This document shows, piece by piece, positions 10,466 through 61,651 of a stretch of DNA of 64,000 bases. The DNA is from Nautiliaceae bacterium (GTDB taxonomy: Bacteria; Campylobacterota; Campylobacteria; Campylobacterales; Nautiliaceae), in the NCBI GenBank assembly GCA_039831155.1, contig JBDONT010000029.1:529-64528 (forward strand), in the 5' to 3' direction. Made by a program: the position numbers and the translations under genes. Within the stretch, counting starts at the first letter, position 1. The number at the start of each line of letters is the position of its first letter. Below the pieces are notes generated by a model that saw only the letters and a list, made by a program, of their open reading frames with translations, did no database searches and was not told where the DNA came from.

Positions 10466-10557
10466 AAATTTCCTTTTTTTTTATTTGCATTTTACTAAAT
10501 TTTCGTTAAAATAGCAAAAAAGTCATTTTCTCATCACTAATTTGACAAAGGTAAAAC

Positions 10558-10980
10558 ATGAAACCAACTCCTATAAACGAAGAAGTTACGTTCAAAGACG
10601 TCGGAGTAAAAAATCGCCCTGTAATAAGTAAAACGGATTTAAAAGGCATTATTACTTTCGTAAATTCAGCTTTCTGTAAATTAGCCGGTTATTCAAAAGA
10701 AGAATTAATAGGTCAACCTCACAATATAGTCAGACATCCCGATATGCCAAAAGCGATATTCAAAGAAATGTGGAATACGATAGAAAGAGGAGAAAGTTTC
10801 AGAGGATTTATAAAAAATTTAAGAAAAGATGGTAAATACTATTGGGTGGAAGTTTTCATAGAACCGATGTTCGACGAACAAGGAGCAAAAATCGGTTATA
10901 TTTCCGCCAGAAAAGAAATTTCCGAATCAGATAAAGAAAAATATGAAAAACTATATCAAGAAATGAAAAAGGAAGAGTAA
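10558..10980 (+). CDS. Stand-alone Aer/CetB-type PAS protein
   Basis: ISKTDLKGIITFVN..FCKLAGYS.EEL.GQPHNIVRHPDMP, KNLRKDG.YYWV: the PAS_3 family of FAD-binding Aer PAS. Confidence 0.85.
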   Translation: MKPTPINEEVTFKDVGVKNRPVISKTDLKGIITFVNSAFCKLAGYSKEELIGQPHNIVRHPDMPKAIFKEMWNTIERGESFRGFIKNLRKDGKYYWVEVFIEPMFDEQGAKIGYISARKEISESDKEKYEKLYQEMKKEE

Positions 10981-12341
10981 TGTTTATTATAGTGGAAAAT
11001 AATAAGATAACGGGGATAGAAAAAAATTTATTAAACGATTTAAATATTACACTGGAATCGATTTCCGAATTTATCAATACTTTAGAATTACAAATAGCAA
11101 GTTTAACAGATTCTCAATTAAATATTAACAATAAAACATTTAATGTAAATGAAATTGAGATTATTTCTACAAAAAATATAAAAATTTTCAAATTAAAAGA
11201 AGTTTCAAATTCAAAACTTGAAGTTAAAGAAGAACCGTCACTTAATCCGGACGATTTACTGACAACTCCTAAAGAAGACGACAACTTAATAAAAGAAGAA
11301 CCGTCACTTAATCCGGACGATTTACTGACAACTCCTAAAGAAGACGACAACTTAATAAAAGAAGAACCGTCACTTAATCCGGACGATTTACTGACAACTC
11401 CTAAAGAAGACGACAACTTAATAAAAGAAGAACCGTCACTTAATCCGGACGATTTATTAGCAACTCCTAAAGAAGACGACAACTTAATAAAAGAAGAACC
11501 GTCACTTAATCCGGACGATTTACTGACAACTCCTAAAGAAGACGACAACTTAATAAAAGAAGAACCGTCACTTAATCCGGACGATTTACTGACAACTCCT
11601 AAAGAAGATATTTCAACGGAAAAAAACAGCGAAAAAGAAAAAGAAAACATTGAAGAAGAACCGACCACCGACAGTTTAGATTTTTCAAATCAAGAACCTT
11701 TAAAAGAACCTCTCAAACAAAACGAAATAAATTTAGGAGAAGAGAGTGAAGAAATAGAAATTTCTTTTGAAGACGATTTAGACGAAATAAAAGAAATTTT
11801 AGAATTAAGTACTGCGGAATTTAATAAACTAATAGAAGAAGAACTTCAAAAAGCTTCGAATGAGTTAGGAATAGATATAAAAGACTTAAGAGATTGGTAC
11901 CTGCAATTACTAGAACAAATACAAGAAGAAAAAAGCACAATATATAAAAACATAAAAAAAGCGGATTATGACGCATTACATAAAAATTATCATAAATTAA
12001 AAGGTGCGGCTTTAAATTTAAGATTATCCAAAATAGCTATTATTTTAAAAAAACTTGACGAATTATCCAAAGATAAAGAAGATATAAACAAAATTAAAAA
12101 AATTACGGATGATTTTTATTTACTATTCGAAAACAAAACTAAAACTTCCTCTCAAGAAAAAGATGAAATCACACCTATAAAAAATAATTTTTTAGAAAAA
12201 ATAATAATTCAAACCATTCAAACTTATTTGAAAACTCAAGACGAAGAAAGATTTAAAAAGGATAAAAAATACATAGAAAAAGTTTTAGGACAAAAAATAG
12301 AATCGATTGAAGATTTACAAAAATTCGTAAAAGGAATATAA
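10980..12341 (+). CDS. Hpt (histidine phosphotransfer) protein with acidic tandem-repeat linker
   Basis: HKLKGAALNLRL Hpt motif in the C-terminal half; 22-aa repeats in the linker. Confidence 0.8.
   Translation: MFIIVENNKITGIEKNLLNDLNITLESISEFINTLELQIASLTDSQLNINNKTFNVNEIEIISTKNIKIFKLKEVSNSKLEVKEEPSLNPDDLLTTPKEDDNLIKEEPSLNPDDLLTTPKEDDNLIKEEPSLNPDDLLTTPKEDDNLIKEEPSLNPDDLLATPKEDDNLIKEEPSLNPDDLLTTPKEDDNLIKEEPSLNPDDLLTTPKEDISTEKNSEKEKENIEEEPTTDSLDFSNQEPLKEPLKQNEINLGEESEEIEISFEDDLDEIKEILELSTAEFNKLIEEELQKASNELGIDIKDLRDWYLQLLEQIQEEKSTIYKNIKKADYDALHKNYHKLKGAALNLRLSKIAIILKKLDELSKDKEDINKIKKITDDFYLLFENKTKTSSQEKDEITPIKNNFLEKIIIQTIQTYLKTQDEERFKKDKKYIEKVLGQKIESIEDLQKFVKGI
11226..11608 (+). repeat. In-frame 66-bp tandem repeat, 5 full copies plus a partial sixth
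   Basis: Units start at 11226, 11292, 11358, 11424, 11490 and 11556 and encode KEEPSLNPDDLLTTPKEDDNLI; copy 4 has 3 substitutions (TTA-TTA-GCA versus TTA-CTG-ACA). Confidence 0.98.
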
Positions 12342-12727
12342 TGAAAAAGTTAATTGTTGCGATATTATTATTAATAAATAGCAGCTATGCGGCAAATTTA
12401 TATTTTAATGCTTTTCAAGACATAAAAAAAGCTAAAAGATTATTAAATAGCAATCCCGACAAAGCTAACAGTTTATTTATAGAAGCCGCCGGTTATTTAA
12501 AACAAGTAATCAATTCGTCCATTAACACTAATAAACCGTCCGGAAACGCTTTATACTTATTGGGAGAGATGTATTATAACGGCTGGGGAGTAAAGAAAAA
12601 CACGAAAAAAGCTTATAAGCTTTTTTGTGCGGCTAAACAATTAGGTAATTTTAAAGCTAAAACACAAGTTAACAAATTAAAAATCAAATGCAAAGTAATA
12701 AAAAACTTTAAGGAGCTACAACAATGA
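12341..12727 (+). CDS. Exported Sel1-like repeat protein
   Basis: Signal peptide; [34 protein letters not shown] is a Sel1 repeat. Confidence 0.8.
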
Positions 12728-15700
12728 AACTATCATTAACAAAACTACTTGCAATTGCAATATGGGTGCCGTCTATTATATTAATTTCCATTAGCGGATA
12801 TTTCTTGTACGTAAATTACGGTAAATATTCAAGCACTCAAAAAAGTTTGAAATATCTTCAACTTGCCAAAACATTAGAAGATATGTTGCTTTATTTGGGT
12901 CAAGAAAGAGGTACCAGTTCTATTTATGCTGTTTCAAAAGGTCAATACCCTAATTCAAAAAAAATAGTTTTACAAAAAAGACAACTATTTACAAAATCCG
13001 TAAACAGATTTAAAAATTTTATCAATAAACATCCGGAATTTTACAATGATGCAAAAGATGTTTTGAGTTTTTTAAACAGACTTGATGCTACAAGAAAAAA
13101 AATCGACTCTTTTAAAGAAAACTATATAAAAGGAGATTTCTTTAAATATTATACGGTTTTAGAACAAAAAATTATGAACCTCCAATCTAAAATTTACTCT
13201 CACTTTCCTCAAGAAATTAAAGATAAATACGCCGTTAAAATAGAACTTGAAAAATTAATCGCTTATTCCGGTATTACAAGAGGTTTCGGTTCTTATTATA
13301 TTACCGCGGATATGCCTATGAGCGAAAACGAATATAAAAACGTTCTTTTAAAATATTTTCACGACAGTAATATTTTAATTACAAGTATCTTATCGCATCA
13401 AAAAATCAAACAACTACTACATTCGAAAGAGTTTCAAAACATAGAAAGAAATATTAAAACGAATATATTCTATCTTCAACAAGCAAACCAAGAATATTAT
13501 ATTACCGGAGAATTTAACGGATACCCTATAGATGCTTTGGATTTCTTCTCAACCTTTACGAAACGTATTTCGGTATTCCAAGATATAGTGCATTATCTTA
13601 ATAAAAATATCAATGAAGTTTTAAACTCCATTATAGCTCAAGAAATAAAAACAAGAAATATCAATTTAACTATCTTCGTATTAGCGATATTGATGTTACT
13701 TCTAGGTTTTTATATCGAAAAAGCTATTATCAAACATATTCACACTCTTTCGGATTTAATTACGTCTTTAACTCCTATTACCGGTAAAAAAATAGAAATT
13801 GACATCACTACCGCTAAAGGGATGGATGAAGCGTTAAAAATTGTGGATGAAGCAATTAAAATTACTCAAGCATCAGTAAAAAAAGCTGAAGAGGCTACAA
13901 AAGCAAAATCTCTATTCCTTGCAAATATGTCACACGAAATCAGAACTCCTCTAAACGGTATTTTAGGTTTCTTAGAACTTTTAAACACTACCGACTTAAC
14001 GGAAGAGCAAATAGATTATGTAAATACAATCGCTCAAAGTGCCAAAAACTTACTTCAAATCGTTAATAACATCTTAGACGTGTCAAAAATCGAAAGCAAT
14101 AAAGTTTCACTAGAACTTATCGACTTTAAAGCACTTGACGAATTTGAAAACACCTTGGAAATTTTCGGTACTCCTGCCGCTCAAAAAAACATAGAATTTA
14201 TAACTGAAATATCTCCTAATATGCCATCGGTAATTAAAGGAGATATTTTAAAAATCAAAGAAATAATTACCAATCTAATGAGTAACGCCATTAAATTTAC
14301 ACCTGAAAACGGAACTATCAGCGTTAAAATAAAACTGGAAAAAATTATAGACAACAAAGCTAAAATTTACTTTGAAGTAAAAGACACCGGTATCGGTATG
14401 AGTGAAGAACAAAAAGAAAAAGTATTCGAAGCGTTTTCTCAAGCGGACGAATCGGTTACTAGAAAATACGGAGGTACCGGTCTTGGTCTTACAATCGTAA
14501 AATCTTATATAGAAATGATGGGCGGGCAAATTTATGTAGAAAGCGAACTAAATAAAGGTACTAAGTTTTATTTCGATTTAATGTTCGAAATAGTAAACCC
14601 TAAACCTAAATTTGATAAAAACTTCTTCGCAAATAAAGAAATAGCTATATTAAACACTCAAAAAGAATCTTTAAGAAAAGAAACCACCATTGAGTATTTA
14701 AACTATTTCGGAGCTAATAAAGTAGGATTTAACGACATAAACGAATTAAGAGCCCTACAAGGTAGAGAAAAATTCGACGGAGTAATGATTTTCTACGATG
14801 AAAGCGATAAAAGCGTAATTGAAGAATTGGATGCTCTCAACATTCCTAAAATCTTCGTAGCTTCTTACTCTAAAAAAGAGATTATTAATAAATTGAATTA
14901 CGAAGCGGTTATTTTCGACCCTAATTTACCTTCTAAAATATTCAAAGCATTAGAATCACTGGAAAAAGTACCGACAAACTCTCAAACAAAAACAAACGTA
15001 AAAGAAAAAGTGCAACACAAAGAAATTTACTCTTTAAAAGCACTAATAGCGGAAGACAATCCTATTAATCAAAAATTACTTCAAACAACTCTAAAAACTT
15101 TAGGTATCGAAAGCGATATAGCTAAAAACGGGCTTGAAGCGTTTAATAAATACACCACAAACCCTAATAAATACGACGTAATCTTTATGGACGTTCAAAT
15201 GCCGGTAATGGACGGACTTGAAGCTACTCACGAAATTTTAGAATTCGAAGCTGAAGAAGGCGTAGCTCACACTCCTATTATTGCAGTTACCGCAAACGTT
15301 TTAAAAGGAGACAGAGAAAGATTCCTAGGTGCCGGTATGGACGAATACATTTCAAAACCTATCTCAAAAGACGCTTTATTAAAAATACTTGAGAGAGTAG
15401 CACATGGAGACTTTACAAAATACTCTTCTCAAGAAATTCAAGAATCTAAGCCAACCGAAAATATTACTATAGAAGAAAAAGAAACAACAGCTACTACAGA
15501 AAGTAATAAAGAACAAATAATTGCCGCAACGGAAGAGAATTCATTCTTTTCAACTTATATAAAAAACGTAATTAATGATATAATAATAGCTGAGAATATC
15601 GGAAAATTATCCGAATTGTTAGCTAAAAATCCTAATTCGGTAATCTTAATAGATGAAGACTTTACCGAAGACTTAGAAGGATTAATCAAAAACTTAAAAA

Positions 15701-15813
15701 AACTACACCCTAAAAAAATTATTATCATAAGCGATAGCGAAAAAGCTATAAACGGTGTCGAATTTTTAAGTGATTTACAACCGGATAATATTAAAAAAGC
15801 AATAAAAGGATAA
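12724..15813 (+). CDS. Hybrid sensor histidine kinase with NIT-like periplasmic domain and receiver domain(s)
   Basis: Two TMs; LGQERG motif typical of NIT domains; H-box [15 protein letters not shown]; N/G boxes (NAIKFT, DTGIG, GGTGLGL); receiver with AEDN and DVQMP. Confidence 0.9.
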
Positions 15814-15817
15814 GACA

Positions 15818-16177
15818 ATGCCGATTAAAAAAGTGTTAGTAGTGGATGACGACCCGATTAATAGAAAACTTATAGTAAATATCCTTTCAAAAAAAGGTTT
15901 TGAAACGATAGAAGCCGGAAATGGTGTAGAAGCATTTGAAGTATTAGAACACAATGAAATTGATATTATTTTACTTGATATCGTTATGCCGGTAATGAAC
16001 GGTATAGAGTTTTTAAAAGAGATAAAAACCAAGCCTCAATTTTTAAATCTTCCTATTATTATTTTAACGACTGACGACAGTAAAAAAACGGAAGTATTAT
16101 CTTTAGGAGCGGACGATATTATTATAAAACCTATTTCTCCTGTTTCTCTATTAGAAAAAATGTCAAACTACGCTTAA
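15818..16177 (+). CDS. Single-domain response regulator (CheY-like)
   Basis: VDDD, LDIVMPVMNG, T and KP motifs; no output domain. Confidence 0.9.
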   Translation: MPIKKVLVVDDDPINRKLIVNILSKKGFETIEAGNGVEAFEVLEHNEIDIILLDIVMPVMNGIEFLKEIKTKPQFLNLPIIILTTDDSKKTEVLSLGADDIIIKPISPVSLLEKMSNYA

Positions 16178-16201
16178 AATTTCTCCCTCAAGGGAGAAAT
16201 T
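16178..16201. terminator. Probable bidirectional intrinsic terminator
   Basis: AATTTCTCCC-TCAA-GGGAGAAATT, a 10-bp stem between convergent genes. Confidence 0.75.
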
Positions 16202-17267
16202 AATAAACTTTAATTTCATTATACAAACTATCTCTCTCTACCGGTATAAATCCGCTATCTTTAATCAAATAAACCAATTCATCCAAATTCAAACCGTTTG
16301 AAGACAAAGCTCCGGCAGCAGAATTTATGGACTCTTTTTCAATAGTTCCGTCAATATCGTTAGCTCCGTATTCTTGAGCTACTAAAGAGAGATTAAGAGT
16401 GGTAGTAACCCAATAAGCTTTGATATTAGGAATATTCTCAAGCAAAATTCTACTAATTGCAATCGTTTTTAAAATTTCAACTCCCGTCAAAAATTTATCC
16501 ACTTTCAAATAGTTGTTTTTTCTCTGATACACAAGAGGAATAAAAGCATTAAACCCGCCTGTTTTTTCCTGTAATTTTTTTATTCTTAATATATGATCGA
16601 TTCTATGTTTTTTATTTTCAATATGTCCAAAAAGCATCGTAACATTTGATTTTTTACCCGCTTTATGCCATATTTCGTGAATTTTTAACCAATTTTCACT
16701 ACTAACTTTTCCTTTACATATTTTAGCTCTTACATTTTCATCAAAAATTTCGGCTCCTCCTCCCGGCATCGAATCCACACCGGCATTAATCATATCTTCT
16801 AATACATCTTCATAACTTTTTCCGCTAAGTTCACTTAAAAAGTTAACTTCAGCAGCCGTAAAAGCTTTTATATGAATATCCGGTAATTCTTTTTTTATCT
16901 CTTTTACTATATTCATATAATAATCATACCCTACCTCCGGATTATGGGCAGAAACTATATGAACTTCTTTAGCTCCTTTTTCATAAGCGTTTTTTGCAAC
17001 CTCAACACATTCATCAACACTCATCGTATAAGGGTGTAGATTCTTTCTATGAGCGGAAAAAGCACAAAATTTACAGACATCCTTACAGATATTAGTAGGA
17101 TTAATGTGTCTATTAATATTAAAATAAGTTTTTTTCCCAAACTTCTCTTCTCTTATTTTATTTGCAAAAAAGCCTAAATCAAAAAGCTCCGAATCATACA
17201 ATTTTTCCGCTTCCTTAATAGAAAGCTCCTCTTTATTTTCAAGTTTTTTTAGTAAAACTTTATTCAT
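16200..17267 (-). CDS. mqnE: Aminofutalosine synthase MqnE (CofH-family radical SAM)
   Basis: NRHINPTNICKDVCKFCAF, SMPGGGAEIF, NIKAYW, GANDIDGT. Confidence 0.88.
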   Translation of the reverse strand: MNKVLLKKLENKEELSIKEAEKLYDSELFDLGFFANKIREEKFGKKTYFNINRHINPTNICKDVCKFCAFSAHRKNLHPYTMSVDECVEVAKNAYEKGAKEVHIVSAHNPEVGYDYYMNIVKEIKKELPDIHIKAFTAAEVNFLSELSGKSYEDVLEDMINAGVDSMPGGGAEIFDENVRAKICKGKVSSENWLKIHEIWHKAGKKSNVTMLFGHIENKKHRIDHILRIKKLQEKTGGFNAFIPLVYQRKNNYLKVDKFLTGVEILKTIAISRILLENIPNIKAYWVTTTLNLSLVAQEYGANDIDGTIEKESINSAAGALSSNGLNLDELVYLIKDSGFIPVERDSLYNEIKVY

Positions 17268-28968: not shown

Positions 28969-29332
28969 AAAGCCGTTTTGTGAAGAAGAGTTTTTATACG
29001 TAAAAACGCTAGAAGATATAAAAAACTCAAAACCGAATACCACTCTTATTTTTCATTACTGCGATTCCTCTCTTGAACTGTTTAATTTTTGTAAGCTAAA
29101 CAATATCGAATACGGAGTTATCGTAAATTCTGTAAAAGAGCTGATATTTTGTGCCAATTTAAATGCCAAATATCTTTTTTGCGAAAATTTAAAAAAAGCA
29201 AAAGAATTTCAAAAAATTGCCGATAATTATTTACTAGATTCGAAAATAGTATTTTTAGCGGATTCTCTAAATGAGATAGAAGAGATATCAAAATACACAA
29301 TTGATGCAATAAAATTAAAGGGGAACAAATGA
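28955..29332 (+). CDS. Hypothetical protein
   Basis: Overlaps both neighbours and has normal codon style; no motif recognised. Confidence 0.6.
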   Translation: MLILEKPFCEEEFLYVKTLEDIKNSKPNTTLIFHYCDSSLELFNFCKLNNIEYGVIVNSVKELIFCANLNAKYLFCENLKKAKEFQKIADNYLLDSKIVFLADSLNEIEEISKYTIDAIKLKGNK

Positions 29333-29862
29333 GAAAACCTAAAGTAACGCCTACAAATAAAGAAGTTGTTTTAAAAGAAGAAGATTTTATCATCTCAAAA
29401 ACCGATTTAAAAAGTAAAATTATTTACGGAAACCAGATTTTTATCCAAATGAGCGGATACTCCGAAAAAGAACTCTTAGGCAAACCTCATAACATCTTAA
29501 GACATCCGGATATGCCAAGATGTGCTTTTAAAGTATTATACGACCACATAGAAAACGGAAAAGAGTGGTTCGGATATGTTAAAAACCTAAGAAAAGACGG
29601 AGGGTATTATTGGGTGTTTGCAAACATCTCTCCTACATACGACACAAACGGAAACTTAATAGGTTATTATTCAGTAAGAAGAAAACCAAGAGACGGCTTT
29701 AAATCAATAATAGAACCTCTTTATCAATCTTTAATAAGCATAGAAGCATCCGGTGGAATGGAAGCTTCTTTAAATGAAGTTGAAAACCTTTTAAAAAAGT
29801 ATAATATGACTTTTAATGAAGTAATGCTAAAAATACAAAAAGGAATTATCAATGAACTATAA
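29329..29862 (+). CDS. cetB: CetB-like PAS protein (bipartite Aer)
   Basis: [32 protein letters not shown]; coupled to an MCP gene. Confidence 0.75.
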
Positions 29863-31285
29863 CAAAATAGCACAAATAAGCTCAAGTGTTTTATTTTTGG
29901 TTATAACAGGATACGGTGTTTACACTCAAAGCTACTTAATAGCCGCAATAGCTTTTATCGGGTTTATAATAACTTTAATTCCGATTTTCACTCAAAAATC
30001 AAACCAAGATTTATTAGACCCTCTTGCAAAAGAGATTGAAGAGGTGTTAATTACGGCATCAAACGGAAACTTTGAAAAAAGAATTACCAATATAGACTTG
30101 CAAAATCCTTTCGCAAAATCGGCATGGGCGTTAAACGACCTTTTAGACCAGCTAGAAGCGTTTGAAAGAGACATTAAAGAATCTATAGAAGCAGCTAAAA
30201 ACGGAATCGATTATCGCGATATCGCCCCTCAAGGATACAAAGGAATCTTTAGAAGAACGGTTATTATGCTAAATGAAGCTATTGACGCAATTTCAACCTC
30301 CCTAAAAGAACAAGCAAGAAGCGAACTTGCAATGATCCTTAACAACTTAGGTGGAGGTATGAAAAAACAAATTAACGACATAAAAATCTCTCTTGATACG
30401 AAACTAAAAGAATTTATGATAAAAATAGACAATTTATCAGGCGAAATATATGAAGGTGCGGATGCAAGTGCGGTTAAAGTAGAAAACCTCACAATGGTAT
30501 TAAACGAGTTAATAGACTTCATATCTCATACAAACGAAGCTATTAATATGCTATCTCAAAGAACTGATGAAATCGGAAAAATCGTAGAATTAATCACCGA
30601 TATCGCAGACCAGACAAATCTACTTGCCCTAAACGCGGCAATTGAAGCTGCTCGTGCCGGAGAACACGGACGCGGTTTTGCAGTAGTTGCGGATGAAGTT
30701 AGAAAACTGGCGGAACGCACTCAAAAAGCTACAAGTGAAATTTCAATCACAATTAAAACATTGCAACAAGAAACAAGCGATATCCAGGCAAATTCCGATA
30801 AAATAACCGAAATGGCGGTAACCTCAAGAGAAGACATAGAATCAGTACAAGAGATAATAGTAGGCTTTAGAGACAAATCTTTAGAAAATAGAAAAAATGT
30901 TGATTTTGCATTAACAAGAATGCTTATGGACTTAGCAAAAATCTCTCACTTACTATACAAACTTAACGCTCACGAAGCTATTATAGAAGAAAAAGAGATA
31001 AAAATAGCAAATGAAAATGAATGTGACTTCGGCAGATGGCTACAAAACCAAGAAACAATCCAAAAAATAGGATGTTTCAGTGAATATAAAACAATAAAAG
31101 ATAATCTTCATAAGAAAGTCCATCAAGAAGTAACCAATGCTCTTGAATGCGTAAAAGATAAAAGCTGTATAAAAAACAAAGACAAAACTATAGAAAAATT
31201 CGAAGAAATTGAACAAATTTCACAACAATTATCTTCGACATTAGATAATTTATTTGAAAAATATATAAAAGAGTCTTGTAAATGA
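29852..31285 (+). CDS. cetA: CetA-like methyl-accepting chemotaxis protein with C-terminal CZB domain
   Basis: Adjacent N-terminal TM hairpin without a periplasmic domain, [39 protein letters not shown], and CZB-type H...CDFGRW...HKKVH. Confidence 0.75.
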
Positions 31286-60532: not shown

Positions 60533-61651
60533 TTATATAAAAATCAAATCTTCTTTTTTTATTTCTCTATTTTCGCTTAAAATAGCAGCTCTTTCTATTA
60601 CGTTTATAAGCTCCCTTATATTCCCCGGATAATCATACTCAAGCAACGCCTTTTTAGCTTCTTCACTCAAAACCTTCTCTTTTAGAGAGTATTCTTTTAT
60701 AGTTTTTTTAAGTATATTTTCAGCAATTGGAATTATATCGTTTTTTCTCTCTCTTAAAGGTGGTATTTTAATAGGAATGGTATTTAAACGATAATACAAA
60801 TCTTCTCTGAATTTATTATTTTTTATCATCTCTTCAACGTTTTGATTTGTCGCACTTATAATTCTCACATCAAGCTTTATAGGTTTGGTACCTCCTAAAC
60901 GGTAAAACTCTCTCTCTTGTAAAACCCTTAGTAATTTTGCTTGAAGATTATAAGGCATTTCCCCTATTTCATCCAAAAACAGCGTCCCACCCTGGGCAAG
61001 TTCAAAAAGTCCGGTTTTATTGGAAGTCGCATCGGTAAAAGCACCCTTTTCATACCCAAACAACTCACTCTCAATTAAATTTTCAGGAATAGCACCCATA
61101 TTAATAGCTACAAATTTACCGTTTCTGCCACTATTTTCGTGAATAAACTTGGCAAACTCCTCTTTTCCAACTCCACTCTCTCCCAAAAGCATCACGTTTG
61201 CCATTGTAGGAGCCACTTTTTTAGCCATTTCAAGGACTTTTTTTGTATTTTCGTCGTTTGCTATGAAAGCCGGTTTAAACTCTACTTTTTTTCCTTTTGT
61301 TTTTTCTTTGACTCTTCTTTTTCTCTCAATTGCAGCTATTAAATCCTCTATTTCAAAAGGTTTTGTCAAGAAATCTTTAACTCCTAGTCTAAGTGCTTCT
61401 ATCGCTTTATTTAAAGTGGCGTTTCCGGTAATTAAAATAACCTCATACTTCCCTTTTAACTCTTTTACAAACTCAATTCCGTCTATTTTCGGCATAGTAA
61501 TATCGCTCACTATAACATCCACATCATCAGTTAACTTCTTTAACGCATCAATAGCGTTTCTAAATTCGACAACCTCATAACCTTCGCTTTTAAGGGCAAG
61601 TGAGAGAGATTTTCTCATATTTATGTCATCTTCTACAATAGCAACTTTCAT
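60533..61651 (-). CDS. flgR: Sigma54-dependent flagellar response regulator FlgR (no C-terminal HTH)
   Basis: Receiver + GESGVGKE, ESELFG.EKGAFTDA, DEIG, YPGNIREL; ends right after the AAA+ domain; conserved asd/flgP context. Confidence 0.85.
   Translation of the reverse strand: MKVAIVEDDINMRKSLSLALKSEGYEVVEFRNAIDALKKLTDDVDVIVSDITMPKIDGIEFVKELKGKYEVILITGNATLNKAIEALRLGVKDFLTKPFEIEDLIAAIERKRRVKEKTKGKKVEFKPAFIANDENTKKVLEMAKKVAPTMANVMLLGESGVGKEEFAKFIHENSGRNGKFVAINMGAIPENLIESELFGYEKGAFTDATSNKTGLFELAQGGTLFLDEIGEMPYNLQAKLLRVLQEREFYRLGGTKPIKLDVRIISATNQNVEEMIKNNKFREDLYYRLNTIPIKIPPLRERKNDIIPIAENILKKTIKEYSLKEKVLSEEAKKALLEYDYPGNIRELINVIERAAILSENREIKKEDLIFI

Follow-up and report, generated by a model that had tools for sequence, protein, structure and literature searches.

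We analyzed a cluster of five genes located at positions 10558 to 16177 of a 64,000-nucleotide stretch of DNA (contig JBDONT010000029.1, hereafter called the window) that comes from a metagenome-assembled genome (MAG) of the family Nautiliaceae. The cluster encodes, in this order, a stand-alone PAS protein, a histidine-phosphotransfer (Hpt) protein, a Sel1-repeat protein, a hybrid sensor histidine kinase with a NIT domain and a single-domain response regulator, or receiver. The five open reading frames (ORFs) were listed at 10558-10980, 10980-12341, 12341-12727, 12724-15813 and 15818-16177, all on the + strand, and their successive junctions are two TAATG overlaps of 1 nt, an ATGA overlap of 4 nt and a gap of 4 nt. 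These coordinates and junctions match the original prediction, which described five co-oriented genes with touching or overlapping ends and no DNA-binding output. Indeed, no DNA-binding domain is encoded by the operon. Our comparison covered 36 orthologous loci from nine family-level groups, 10 from Nautiliaceae and 26 from the eight other groups. The core of the system is made of the Hpt protein, the NIT-kinase and the receiver, and the PAS and Sel1 proteins are recurrent accessories in fixed slots.

The kinase (12724-15813, + strand) is 1029 residues long and displays a first transmembrane (TM) helix, a NIT domain, a second TM helix, a linker, the HisKA and HATPase_c domains, a receiver-like segment, an intact receiver domain (REC) and a C-terminal pseudo-receiver. 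The periplasmic NIT domain (residues ~31-311; 12814-13656, + strand) lies between the TM helices ~3-22 and 317-337. Throughout this work, TM helices and signal peptides were assigned from hydropathy and from AlphaFold2 (AF2) models. The NIT domain scores 32.5 bits against the Pfam profile PF08376 (cut-off 24.9), with only positions 6-147 of 239 being matched; in the ortholog L022, the match covers positions 2-238 with 50.3 bits. Its AF2 model is all-helical with a predicted local distance difference test (pLDDT) value of 91.5, and the sole significant Foldseek match (E < 0.001) is NasR (PDB ID 4AKK; E 5e-6, probability 1.0, TM-score 0.60). In NasR, the ERG motif of helix 1 and residues E175/R176 of helix 5 constitute the proposed nitrate pocket (PMC7496416). 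A profile alignment places E61-R62 of the kinase on the ERG motif and T185-R186 on E175-R176. Residues Y35, E61, R62 and R124, as well as the E61-R62-G63 triplet, are invariant in 17 orthologs, and the ERG motif and the two arginines of the pocket persist across the nine family-level groups. The NIT-like periplasmic sensor that had been predicted is thus supported by a Pfam score above the cut-off and by a NasR-like fold, and the motifs quoted at that time are all present, namely GQERG (59-63), AEDN (776-779) and DVQMP (823-827).

The kinase core (13903-14583, + strand) consists of HisKA (residues 394-458, including H404; 81 bits) and HATPase_c (506-620; 105 bits), with the G-boxes DTGIGM (554-559) and GTGLGL (584-589). 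The intact internal receiver (residues 774-889; 15043-15390, + strand; Response_reg 86 bits) harbors the acceptor-site residues E777/D778, D823, T856 and K878, which correspond to invariant columns among orthologs. Two degenerate receiver-like segments had also been proposed, and this claim holds for one of them. The C-terminal region (residues 930-1029; 15511-15810, + strand) is aligned by hhalign with the stand-alone REC family with a probability of 94.8% (E 5e-8), the acidic pocket and the lysine being not kept, and the equivalent region of L022 contains a second Response_reg/PDE8A_N stretch. The other segment (residues 636-760; 14629-15003, + strand), located between HATPase_c and REC, is conserved across families. 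It gives a collinear but non-significant hhalign alignment with REC (probability 2.6%, E 0.018) and weak profile matches in the PDB with CcpA (0.0025), MrkE (0.0036) and the REC domain of AdeR (0.06). It is possibly a degenerate receiver or a flavodoxin-like fold. As a whole, the kinase remains below every one of the NCBIfam equivalog cut-offs for BarA (424 bits for a cut-off of 890), TorS (335 for 676), LuxQ (297 for 1200), RcsC (288 for 920) and ArcB (266 for 838).

The Hpt protein (453 residues; 10980-12341, + strand) is composed, in its AF2 model, of a PAS-like N-domain, a disordered acidic linker, an Hpt bundle and C-terminal helices. The N-domain (residues 1-77; 10980-11210, + strand; pLDDT ~88) is a mini PAS-like domain with a beta-beta-alpha-alpha-alpha-beta-beta-beta topology that matches the PAS domains 3fc7 and 3mfx in Foldseek. 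A homologous N-domain is found in every Hpt protein of the module, reaching ~110 residues outside Nautiliaceae, and that of L020 gives a weak PAS_9 match. Most of the linker (residues 78-263, pLDDT <50) is encoded by a tandem repeat of 5.8 copies of 66 bp (11226-11608, + strand; Tandem Repeats Finder, 98% matches, score 745), each unit corresponding to 22 residues rich in Pro, Asp and Glu. The linker is hypervariable in length, by several fold, and the orthologous proteins range from 331 to 739 residues, which suggests rapid expansion and contraction of the repeat. The contig of a 98%-identical sister MAG breaks off within the Hpt gene, ~1.1 kb before the kinase. A Pfam match to Ste5 on the Hpt protein was discarded as a low-complexity artefact of the repeat, no single stretch passing alone.

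The helical bundle (residues 264-385; 11769-12134, + strand; pLDDT >90) is followed by three further helices. Its top Foldseek matches are Hpt domains, those of RcsD/YojN (1sr2), 3myf, HptB (7c1i), YPD1, ArcB (2a0b) and BarA (3iqt), and the ortholog alignment points to H338, within the invariant motif HxLKGAxLNLRLS, as the candidate phospho-acceptor. What speaks against this identity is the score of the window protein on the Pfam profile PF01627, 21.3 bits, which is below the cut-off of 24.6. The same profile is matched by 10/10 orthologs of the family (E <= 0.01), and distant orthologs are above the cut-off with 52.8, 47.1, 36.2 and 29.8 bits. A sequence-profile search of the Hpt protein against the PDB gave at best an E-value of 0.19. 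We therefore accept the Hpt identity on the basis of the fold, that is of the AF2 model and its Foldseek matches, and not of the PDB profile search. On this basis, the separately encoded Hpt protein of the original prediction stands, with an Hpt fold and an invariant H338 motif. The hidden Markov model search it had suggested gave a mixed result, since the NIT and PAS_3 profiles were matched and the window Hpt fell under its cut-off.

The last gene (15818-16177, + strand) encodes the 119-residue receiver, in which Response_reg (102 bits) is the only Pfam domain and the acceptor residues are complete, as expected of the bare receiver that had been described. Residues D10-D12, D54, T84/T85 and K104 are invariant in 16 orthologs, and a family-specific TTD(D/E)xKK stretch is kept after strand beta-4 in the same set. 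The protein fails the curated CheY equivalog cut-offs, with 61.5 bits for 189 (NF007901) and 64.4 bits for 200 (NF041367). It is thus a generic single-domain receiver and not a CheY-like protein by these models. A better CheY candidate is encoded on contig C33 of the genome. Elsewhere in the window, the minus strand encodes an orphan REC-AAA+ regulator of 372 residues (60533-61651), which resembles sigma-54 activators, with no obvious DNA-binding domain and no adjacent kinase.

All the residues needed for the sequence H404 to D823 to H338 to D54 are present and conserved, so that a four-step relay is the natural reading of the locus. We propose that binding of a ligand to the periplasmic NIT domain would alter autophosphorylation at H404. 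The phosphoryl group would then pass to D823 of the kinase's own receiver, from there to H338 of the separate Hpt protein, with D54 of the adjacent receiver as the last acceptor. The His-Asp-His-Asp architecture put forward by the original prediction is therefore retained, each phospho-acceptor residue being present, and it is very probable, as judged from sequence, that the operon proteins form a functional relay. Since the receiver has no output domain, the output would occur through protein-protein contacts, or the Hpt protein would feed another regulator too. A motor or cyclic di-GMP output is pure speculation. We infer the direction and specificity of phosphotransfer, as well as the ligand, the partners of the PAS and Sel1 proteins and the output.

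The comparison of the 36 loci illustrates how faithfully this arrangement is kept. The receiver gene directly follows the kinase gene in 36/36 loci, and the Hpt gene directly precedes the kinase gene, or the Sel1 gene, in 33/36. A PAS gene is found before the Hpt gene in 24 loci; 11 are without it and L028 is undetermined. A Sel1 gene lies between the Hpt and kinase genes in 16 loci and is absent in 20. Where they are present, PAS opens the cluster every time, immediately ahead of Hpt, and Sel1 invariably separates Hpt from the kinase. This constancy holds down to 35% kinase identity, with overlapping or short junctions. Within Nautiliaceae, the order PAS-Hpt-Sel1-kinase-receiver is the same in five genera, save in L024, which is without Sel1 and has two receivers after the kinase, followed by the contig end. 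Nine of the 10 Nautiliaceae loci are flanked by era-hslU-hslV-rplI on one side of the operon and by a radical-SAM gene and glnD on the other. The complete set of five genes recurs as a cluster in two further family-level groups (L018, L041, L042 and L044). In L058-L060, which belong to one family-level group, a separate Hpt gene was not detected, and the kinases of L058 and L059 are 1385-1517 residues long. Outside Nautiliaceae, a co-oriented uvrC is directly upstream of the cluster in the 24/24 loci whose flanks were examined (L018-L021, L041-L060), and a convergent lon is often downstream. We did not retain the latter adjacency as a functional hint, because lon is convergent and is missing at the site in several families and in Nautiliaceae.

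Such a gene order, kept across nine family-level groups, is far beyond chance. The conservation of the neighborhood across Campylobacterota that had been suggested as a check is thus observed, the genes being linked in relatives. The idea of a five-gene circuit acting as a unit has to be narrowed: it holds for the Hpt-kinase-receiver core, while PAS and Sel1 are accessory. Full-length kinase orthologs occur in ~51 of 301 sampled Campylobacterota genomes, spread over seven family-level groups, and this wide and conserved distribution indicates that the module is ancient and vertically inherited.

The PAS protein (140 residues; 10558-10980, + strand) matches PAS_3 in Pfam (4e-19). In a phmmer search against the PDB, it retrieved the flavin adenine dinucleotide (FAD)-binding PAS domain of MmoS (3ewk, 4e-34) and the PAS domain of E. 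coli Aer (8dik, 2.4e-32). In Aer, FAD is contacted by H53, R57, M69, W70, N85 and R115 (PMC9668731), and these six residues are all kept here as H55, R59, M71, W72, N87 and R118. The Aer type assigned by the original prediction is thus confirmed by the PAS_3 match, the proximity to Aer and the six FAD contacts, and the protein is predicted from its sequence to be an FAD-binding redox sensor.

The window also contains a canonical CetB/CetA energy-taxis pair at 29329-31285, in which a CetB-like PAS gene (29329-29862, 177 residues) overlaps the start of the gene for a CetA-like membrane transducer (29852-31285, 477 residues) with a methyl-accepting chemotaxis protein (MCP) signalling domain. This CetB-like protein is 47% identical to the PAS protein of the operon. 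In addition, an Aer-type PAS module with the RHPDMP motif is fused in a soluble hybrid kinase of PAS-HisKA-HATPase-REC-weak Hpt organization (contig C35:72166-74463) and in a REC-PAS-EAL-type protein (contig C43:86435-88408). The operon, CetB, hybrid-kinase and REC-PAS-EAL settings show that this type of flavin-PAS occurs in at least four architectures in one genome, and the C35 protein indicates that such a module can drive a kinase. Since the same type is used in trans with the CetA-like transducer and in fusion with a kinase, a trans-acting redox input to the relay is plausible. The PAS protein, a cytoplasmic one, would add a redox or energy-state input in trans, and its docking site would be either the juxtamembrane linker of the kinase or, in the Hpt protein, the PAS-like N-domain; we lean slightly towards such an action on the relay. 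Neither the CetB/CetA pair, nor the three-part Hpt protein with its PAS-like N-domain, nor the phylum-wide spread of the module figured in the original prediction.

The Sel1 protein (128 residues; 12341-12727, + strand) is a secreted, Hcp-like protein that scores 35.1 bits on Sel1 for a cut-off of 30.7. Its closest solved structure is HcpC from Helicobacter pylori (1ouv, 1e-12), HcpB (1klx) being also matched. The N-terminus is hydrophobic and has a ...SYA/AN site, and the signal peptide and two cysteines are kept in 16 orthologs, so that export is predicted from the sequence. A parallel can be drawn with ExoR, a periplasmic Sel1-repeat protein of Sinorhizobium and Agrobacterium that regulates the kinase ExoS of the ExoS/ChvI system by direct binding. 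ExoR is a larger protein whose gene does not accompany that of its kinase, and ExoS is neither a NIT kinase nor a hybrid one; the likeness observed is one of repeat type. Nevertheless, this precedent makes a contact between the Sel1 protein and the sensor plausible, and we tentatively propose, by analogy, that the Sel1 protein may act on the periplasmic sensor as ExoR does on ExoS.

Altogether, our favored explanation, which we hold with moderate confidence, is a conserved four-step phosphorelay with a NIT input and with PAS and Sel1 accessories. Its ligand deserves a separate discussion. Nitrate or nitrite is the best guess in view of the NIT fold and of the two conserved arginines, and from sequence and model together we would regard this assignment as evenly balanced. 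Several facts support it. NasR binds nitrate/nitrite (PMC7496416), and micromolar dissociation constants for both anions are reported for the NIT ligand-binding domains of PscN and Dd15070 (PMC12358799). Nitrate serves cultured representatives of the host family as an electron acceptor or as a source of nitrogen (PMC2628731). Campylobacterota are devoid of NarXL/NarQP-type nitrate sensors, and in Wolinella the Crp/Fnr-type NssA is the only regulator known to respond to nitrate (PMC6682613). In one Nautiliaceae genome (G012), the kinase has decayed with at least four frameshifts and in-frame stops and the Hpt gene is also a pseudogene; napA and two more genes of the nap operon are frameshifted as well, most neighboring genes being intact. 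The decayed sites are C1:1144756-1147445 and C1:334087-336871 (loci L065 and L066). In the sister genome G008, the kinase, Hpt and nap genes are all intact. This co-decay, seen in a single lineage, may point to a link between the relay and nitrate. As a separate observation, many Campylobacterota genomes, among them G001, G004, G007 and G011, also contain ORFs of 660-690 residues that match the NIT sensor profile (E ~1e-33 to 1e-43) and are probably NIT chemoreceptors; none was found in the genome from which the window comes.

A number of observations weigh against this assignment, and others against further parts of our scheme. PA4520 has a NIT domain that binds neither of the two anions, and the NIT chemoreceptors of P. 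putida and P. fluorescens are not mediators of taxis to nitrate (PMC6381276). The NIT superfamily therefore has more than one ligand class, and the family name does not transfer the ligand. NapA (TIGR01706) is not enriched in genomes with the kinase, being found in 43/51 of them (84%) versus 250/301 of the whole sample (83%), as tallied by hand from two tables, and eight near-complete genomes have the kinase and no NapA. The helix-5 glutamate E175 of NasR is replaced by a threonine (T185) in Nautiliaceae, and only a part of the NIT profile is covered by the window protein. In G012, two unrelated flanking genes are frameshifted too, so that the decay may partly reflect assembly errors. One could thus assume that the relay is real and that the signal of its NIT domain is a different small anion, or a protein of the periplasm, for example Sel1, "nitrate" being a mere label. 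The retention of the pocket arginines and ERG motif in all nine groups argues in the other direction, together with the precedents, the nitrate use and the co-decay mentioned above, and we consider this possibility somewhat improbable. The destination of the phosphoryl group raises another question. The genome contains a second stand-alone Hpt protein and many orphan receivers, which makes cross-talk possible. The adjacent receiver could be a phosphate sink or shuttle, the real output being another regulator, of DNA-binding, GGDEF/EAL or sigma-54 type, reached via the same Hpt protein. In line with this, ~22 receiver domains are encoded in the genome, and several orphans carry GGDEF, GGDEF-EAL, PP2C, AAA+ or winged-helix domains with no adjacent kinase. 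Stand-alone receivers have been discussed as sinks in Campylobacterota gene clusters (PMC9239204), two receivers follow the kinase in L024, and some distant Hpt proteins have two Hpt stretches, suggesting branching. Yet none of the partners is linked to the kinase as faithfully as the receiver, whose TTD(D/E)xKK surface stretch is what would be expected of a dedicated effector rather than of a passive sink, and in none of the families examined is a further regulator syntenic with the module. A receiver acting as a sink seems to us rather doubtful.

The accessories are open to a similar doubt, since the repeated loss of PAS and Sel1 with retention of the relay implies that neither is essential to it. 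No HAMP domain was detected between TM2 and HisKA (residues 320-400) in the kinase and four orthologs at a Pfam E <= 10. The docking model of Aer/CetA is thus not directly transferable to the PAS protein. In addition, C. jejuni pairs two PAS proteins, CetB and CetC, with one CetA (PMC3558505), and the window has its own CetB/CetA pair with a 47%-identical PAS protein. On this basis, one could wonder whether the PAS protein is, besides the CetB-like protein, a further partner of this type for the CetA-like transducer and the Sel1 protein has an unrelated periplasmic role, one or both being mere neighbors of the relay; a weak MotX-like match of the Sel1 protein in NCBIfam (E 0.024) would fit with this view. 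We find it unlikely, because the fixed slots of the two genes over diverged families would be difficult to account for if no function were shared; the fusion of the same PAS type to a hybrid kinase in this genome also argues against it. A more elaborate scheme builds on the relay that we favor. The PAS protein would heterodimerize with the N-domain of the Hpt protein and not with the kinase, so that the relay would be gated at the Hpt step by nitrate/nitrite and redox state together. Phosphate coming from the periplasmic signal would get to the receiver in one given redox state of the cell only, which would make the phosphotransfer protein an AND-gate; the acidic linker would tune the coupling, and the whole would be the missing nitrate pathway of Campylobacterota. 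The scheme appears highly improbable.

The comparison with known systems helps to delineate what is particular to the module. NasR, the NIT-ANTAR antiterminator of Klebsiella oxytoca, has in common with the kinase NIT domain its sensor fold, the ERG motif of helix 1 and the arginine of helix 5, with ~14% identity and a threonine instead of E175 here. However, NasR acts in the cytoplasm as a soluble one-component protein that binds RNA, whereas the present NIT domain is located in the periplasm, flanked by two TM helices, and controls a hybrid kinase. PscN/PacN and Dd15070 also possess a periplasmic NIT domain between two TM helices, but their output is an MCP signalling domain directed to CheA and not a kinase relay. 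NarX/NarQ-NarL/NarP are functional analogues in which a membrane kinase senses periplasmic nitrate/nitrite (PMC8199190); they belong to another sensor family, have no internal receiver or Hpt, rely on a DNA-binding output and are absent from Campylobacterota (PMC6682613).

Regarding the relay itself, the LuxN/LuxQ-LuxU-LuxO and TorS systems likewise combine a hybrid kinase with a separate (LuxU) or downstream Hpt step, and the TorS and LuxQ models of NCBIfam match the kinase core with scores far below their cut-offs. LuxP and TorT are periplasmic accessories bound to the sensor, but with periplasmic-binding-protein folds and not Sel1 repeats. The terminal regulators of the Lux and Tor systems are transcription factors and their Hpt proteins are small single domains. 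Among the unorthodox kinases of the BarA/GacS type, BarA is the best NCBIfam match; it is aligned over HisKA, HATPase, the linker and REC and has a similarly long spacer between ATPase and receiver. BarA ends, however, in a fused Hpt, whereas the present kinase ends in a pseudo-receiver, with a separate Hpt protein and a different sensor. The PAS protein is of the Aer type found in E. coli Aer and is stand-alone like CetB of C. jejuni. In Aer and CetA, a HAMP domain is the docking site of the PAS, while here the syntenic partner is a phosphorelay and not an MCP-type transducer, and HAMP was not detected in the kinase.

All the parts thus belong to known families, and the overall logic is like that of the LuxQ/LuxU, TorS/TorT and BarA-type relays. 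The distinctive features are the NIT sensor on a hybrid kinase, the addition of a PAS-like domain and a hypervariable acidic linker to the Hpt protein, and the conserved presence, in the same cluster, of genes for a flavin-PAS protein like CetB and a Sel1 protein like the Hcp proteins. In agreement with the undescribed circuit announced by the original prediction, our literature search found no published description of the module, and hybrid-kinase clusters are treated in general terms only in a survey of signalling in Campylobacterota (PMC9239204). Campylobacterota include dominant chemolithoautotrophs of hydrothermal vents and sulfidic habitats. For their perception of nitrate without NarX/NarQ, a NIT phosphorelay is an obvious candidate, for which the module offers a concrete set of proteins and residues for testing. 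Should the PAS protein act on the relay, the bipartite principle of CetA/CetB would apply to two-component phosphorelays as well as to chemoreceptors; otherwise, the module would be one more uncharacterized multi-step relay of standard parts.

Finally, we examined the edges of the operon. A 10-bp hairpin (16178-16201; dG -13.2 kcal/mol, z -4.5), with 0/200 shuffles folding equally well, spans the whole gap between the receiver gene and the convergent radical-SAM gene (16200-17267, minus strand). Its 3' tail on the + strand, UAAUAAAC, has no canonical U-tract, and the hairpin is not among the sites listed by the terminator scan. Of the features of the clean terminator of the original prediction, the strong hairpin is present and the canonical U-tract is absent. 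An Rfam search gave no match to a structured RNA in or around the operon at E <= 0.1, and the antisense ORFs found inside the repeat and the kinase gene were considered spurious. The sole intergenic space ahead of the operon, 93 nt long, follows the divergent rplI and holds a sigma-70-like promoter candidate, TTTGCA-17-TAAAAT (10484-10512, + strand), that agrees with 9/12 consensus positions, an agreement of little weight in DNA so rich in AT. A better one, and the highest of the region (11/12), is that of TTTACA-17-TATAAT at 12314-12342; this sequence lies at the Hpt/Sel1 junction and could be an internal promoter for the Sel1, kinase and receiver genes, or a chance match in AT-rich DNA.

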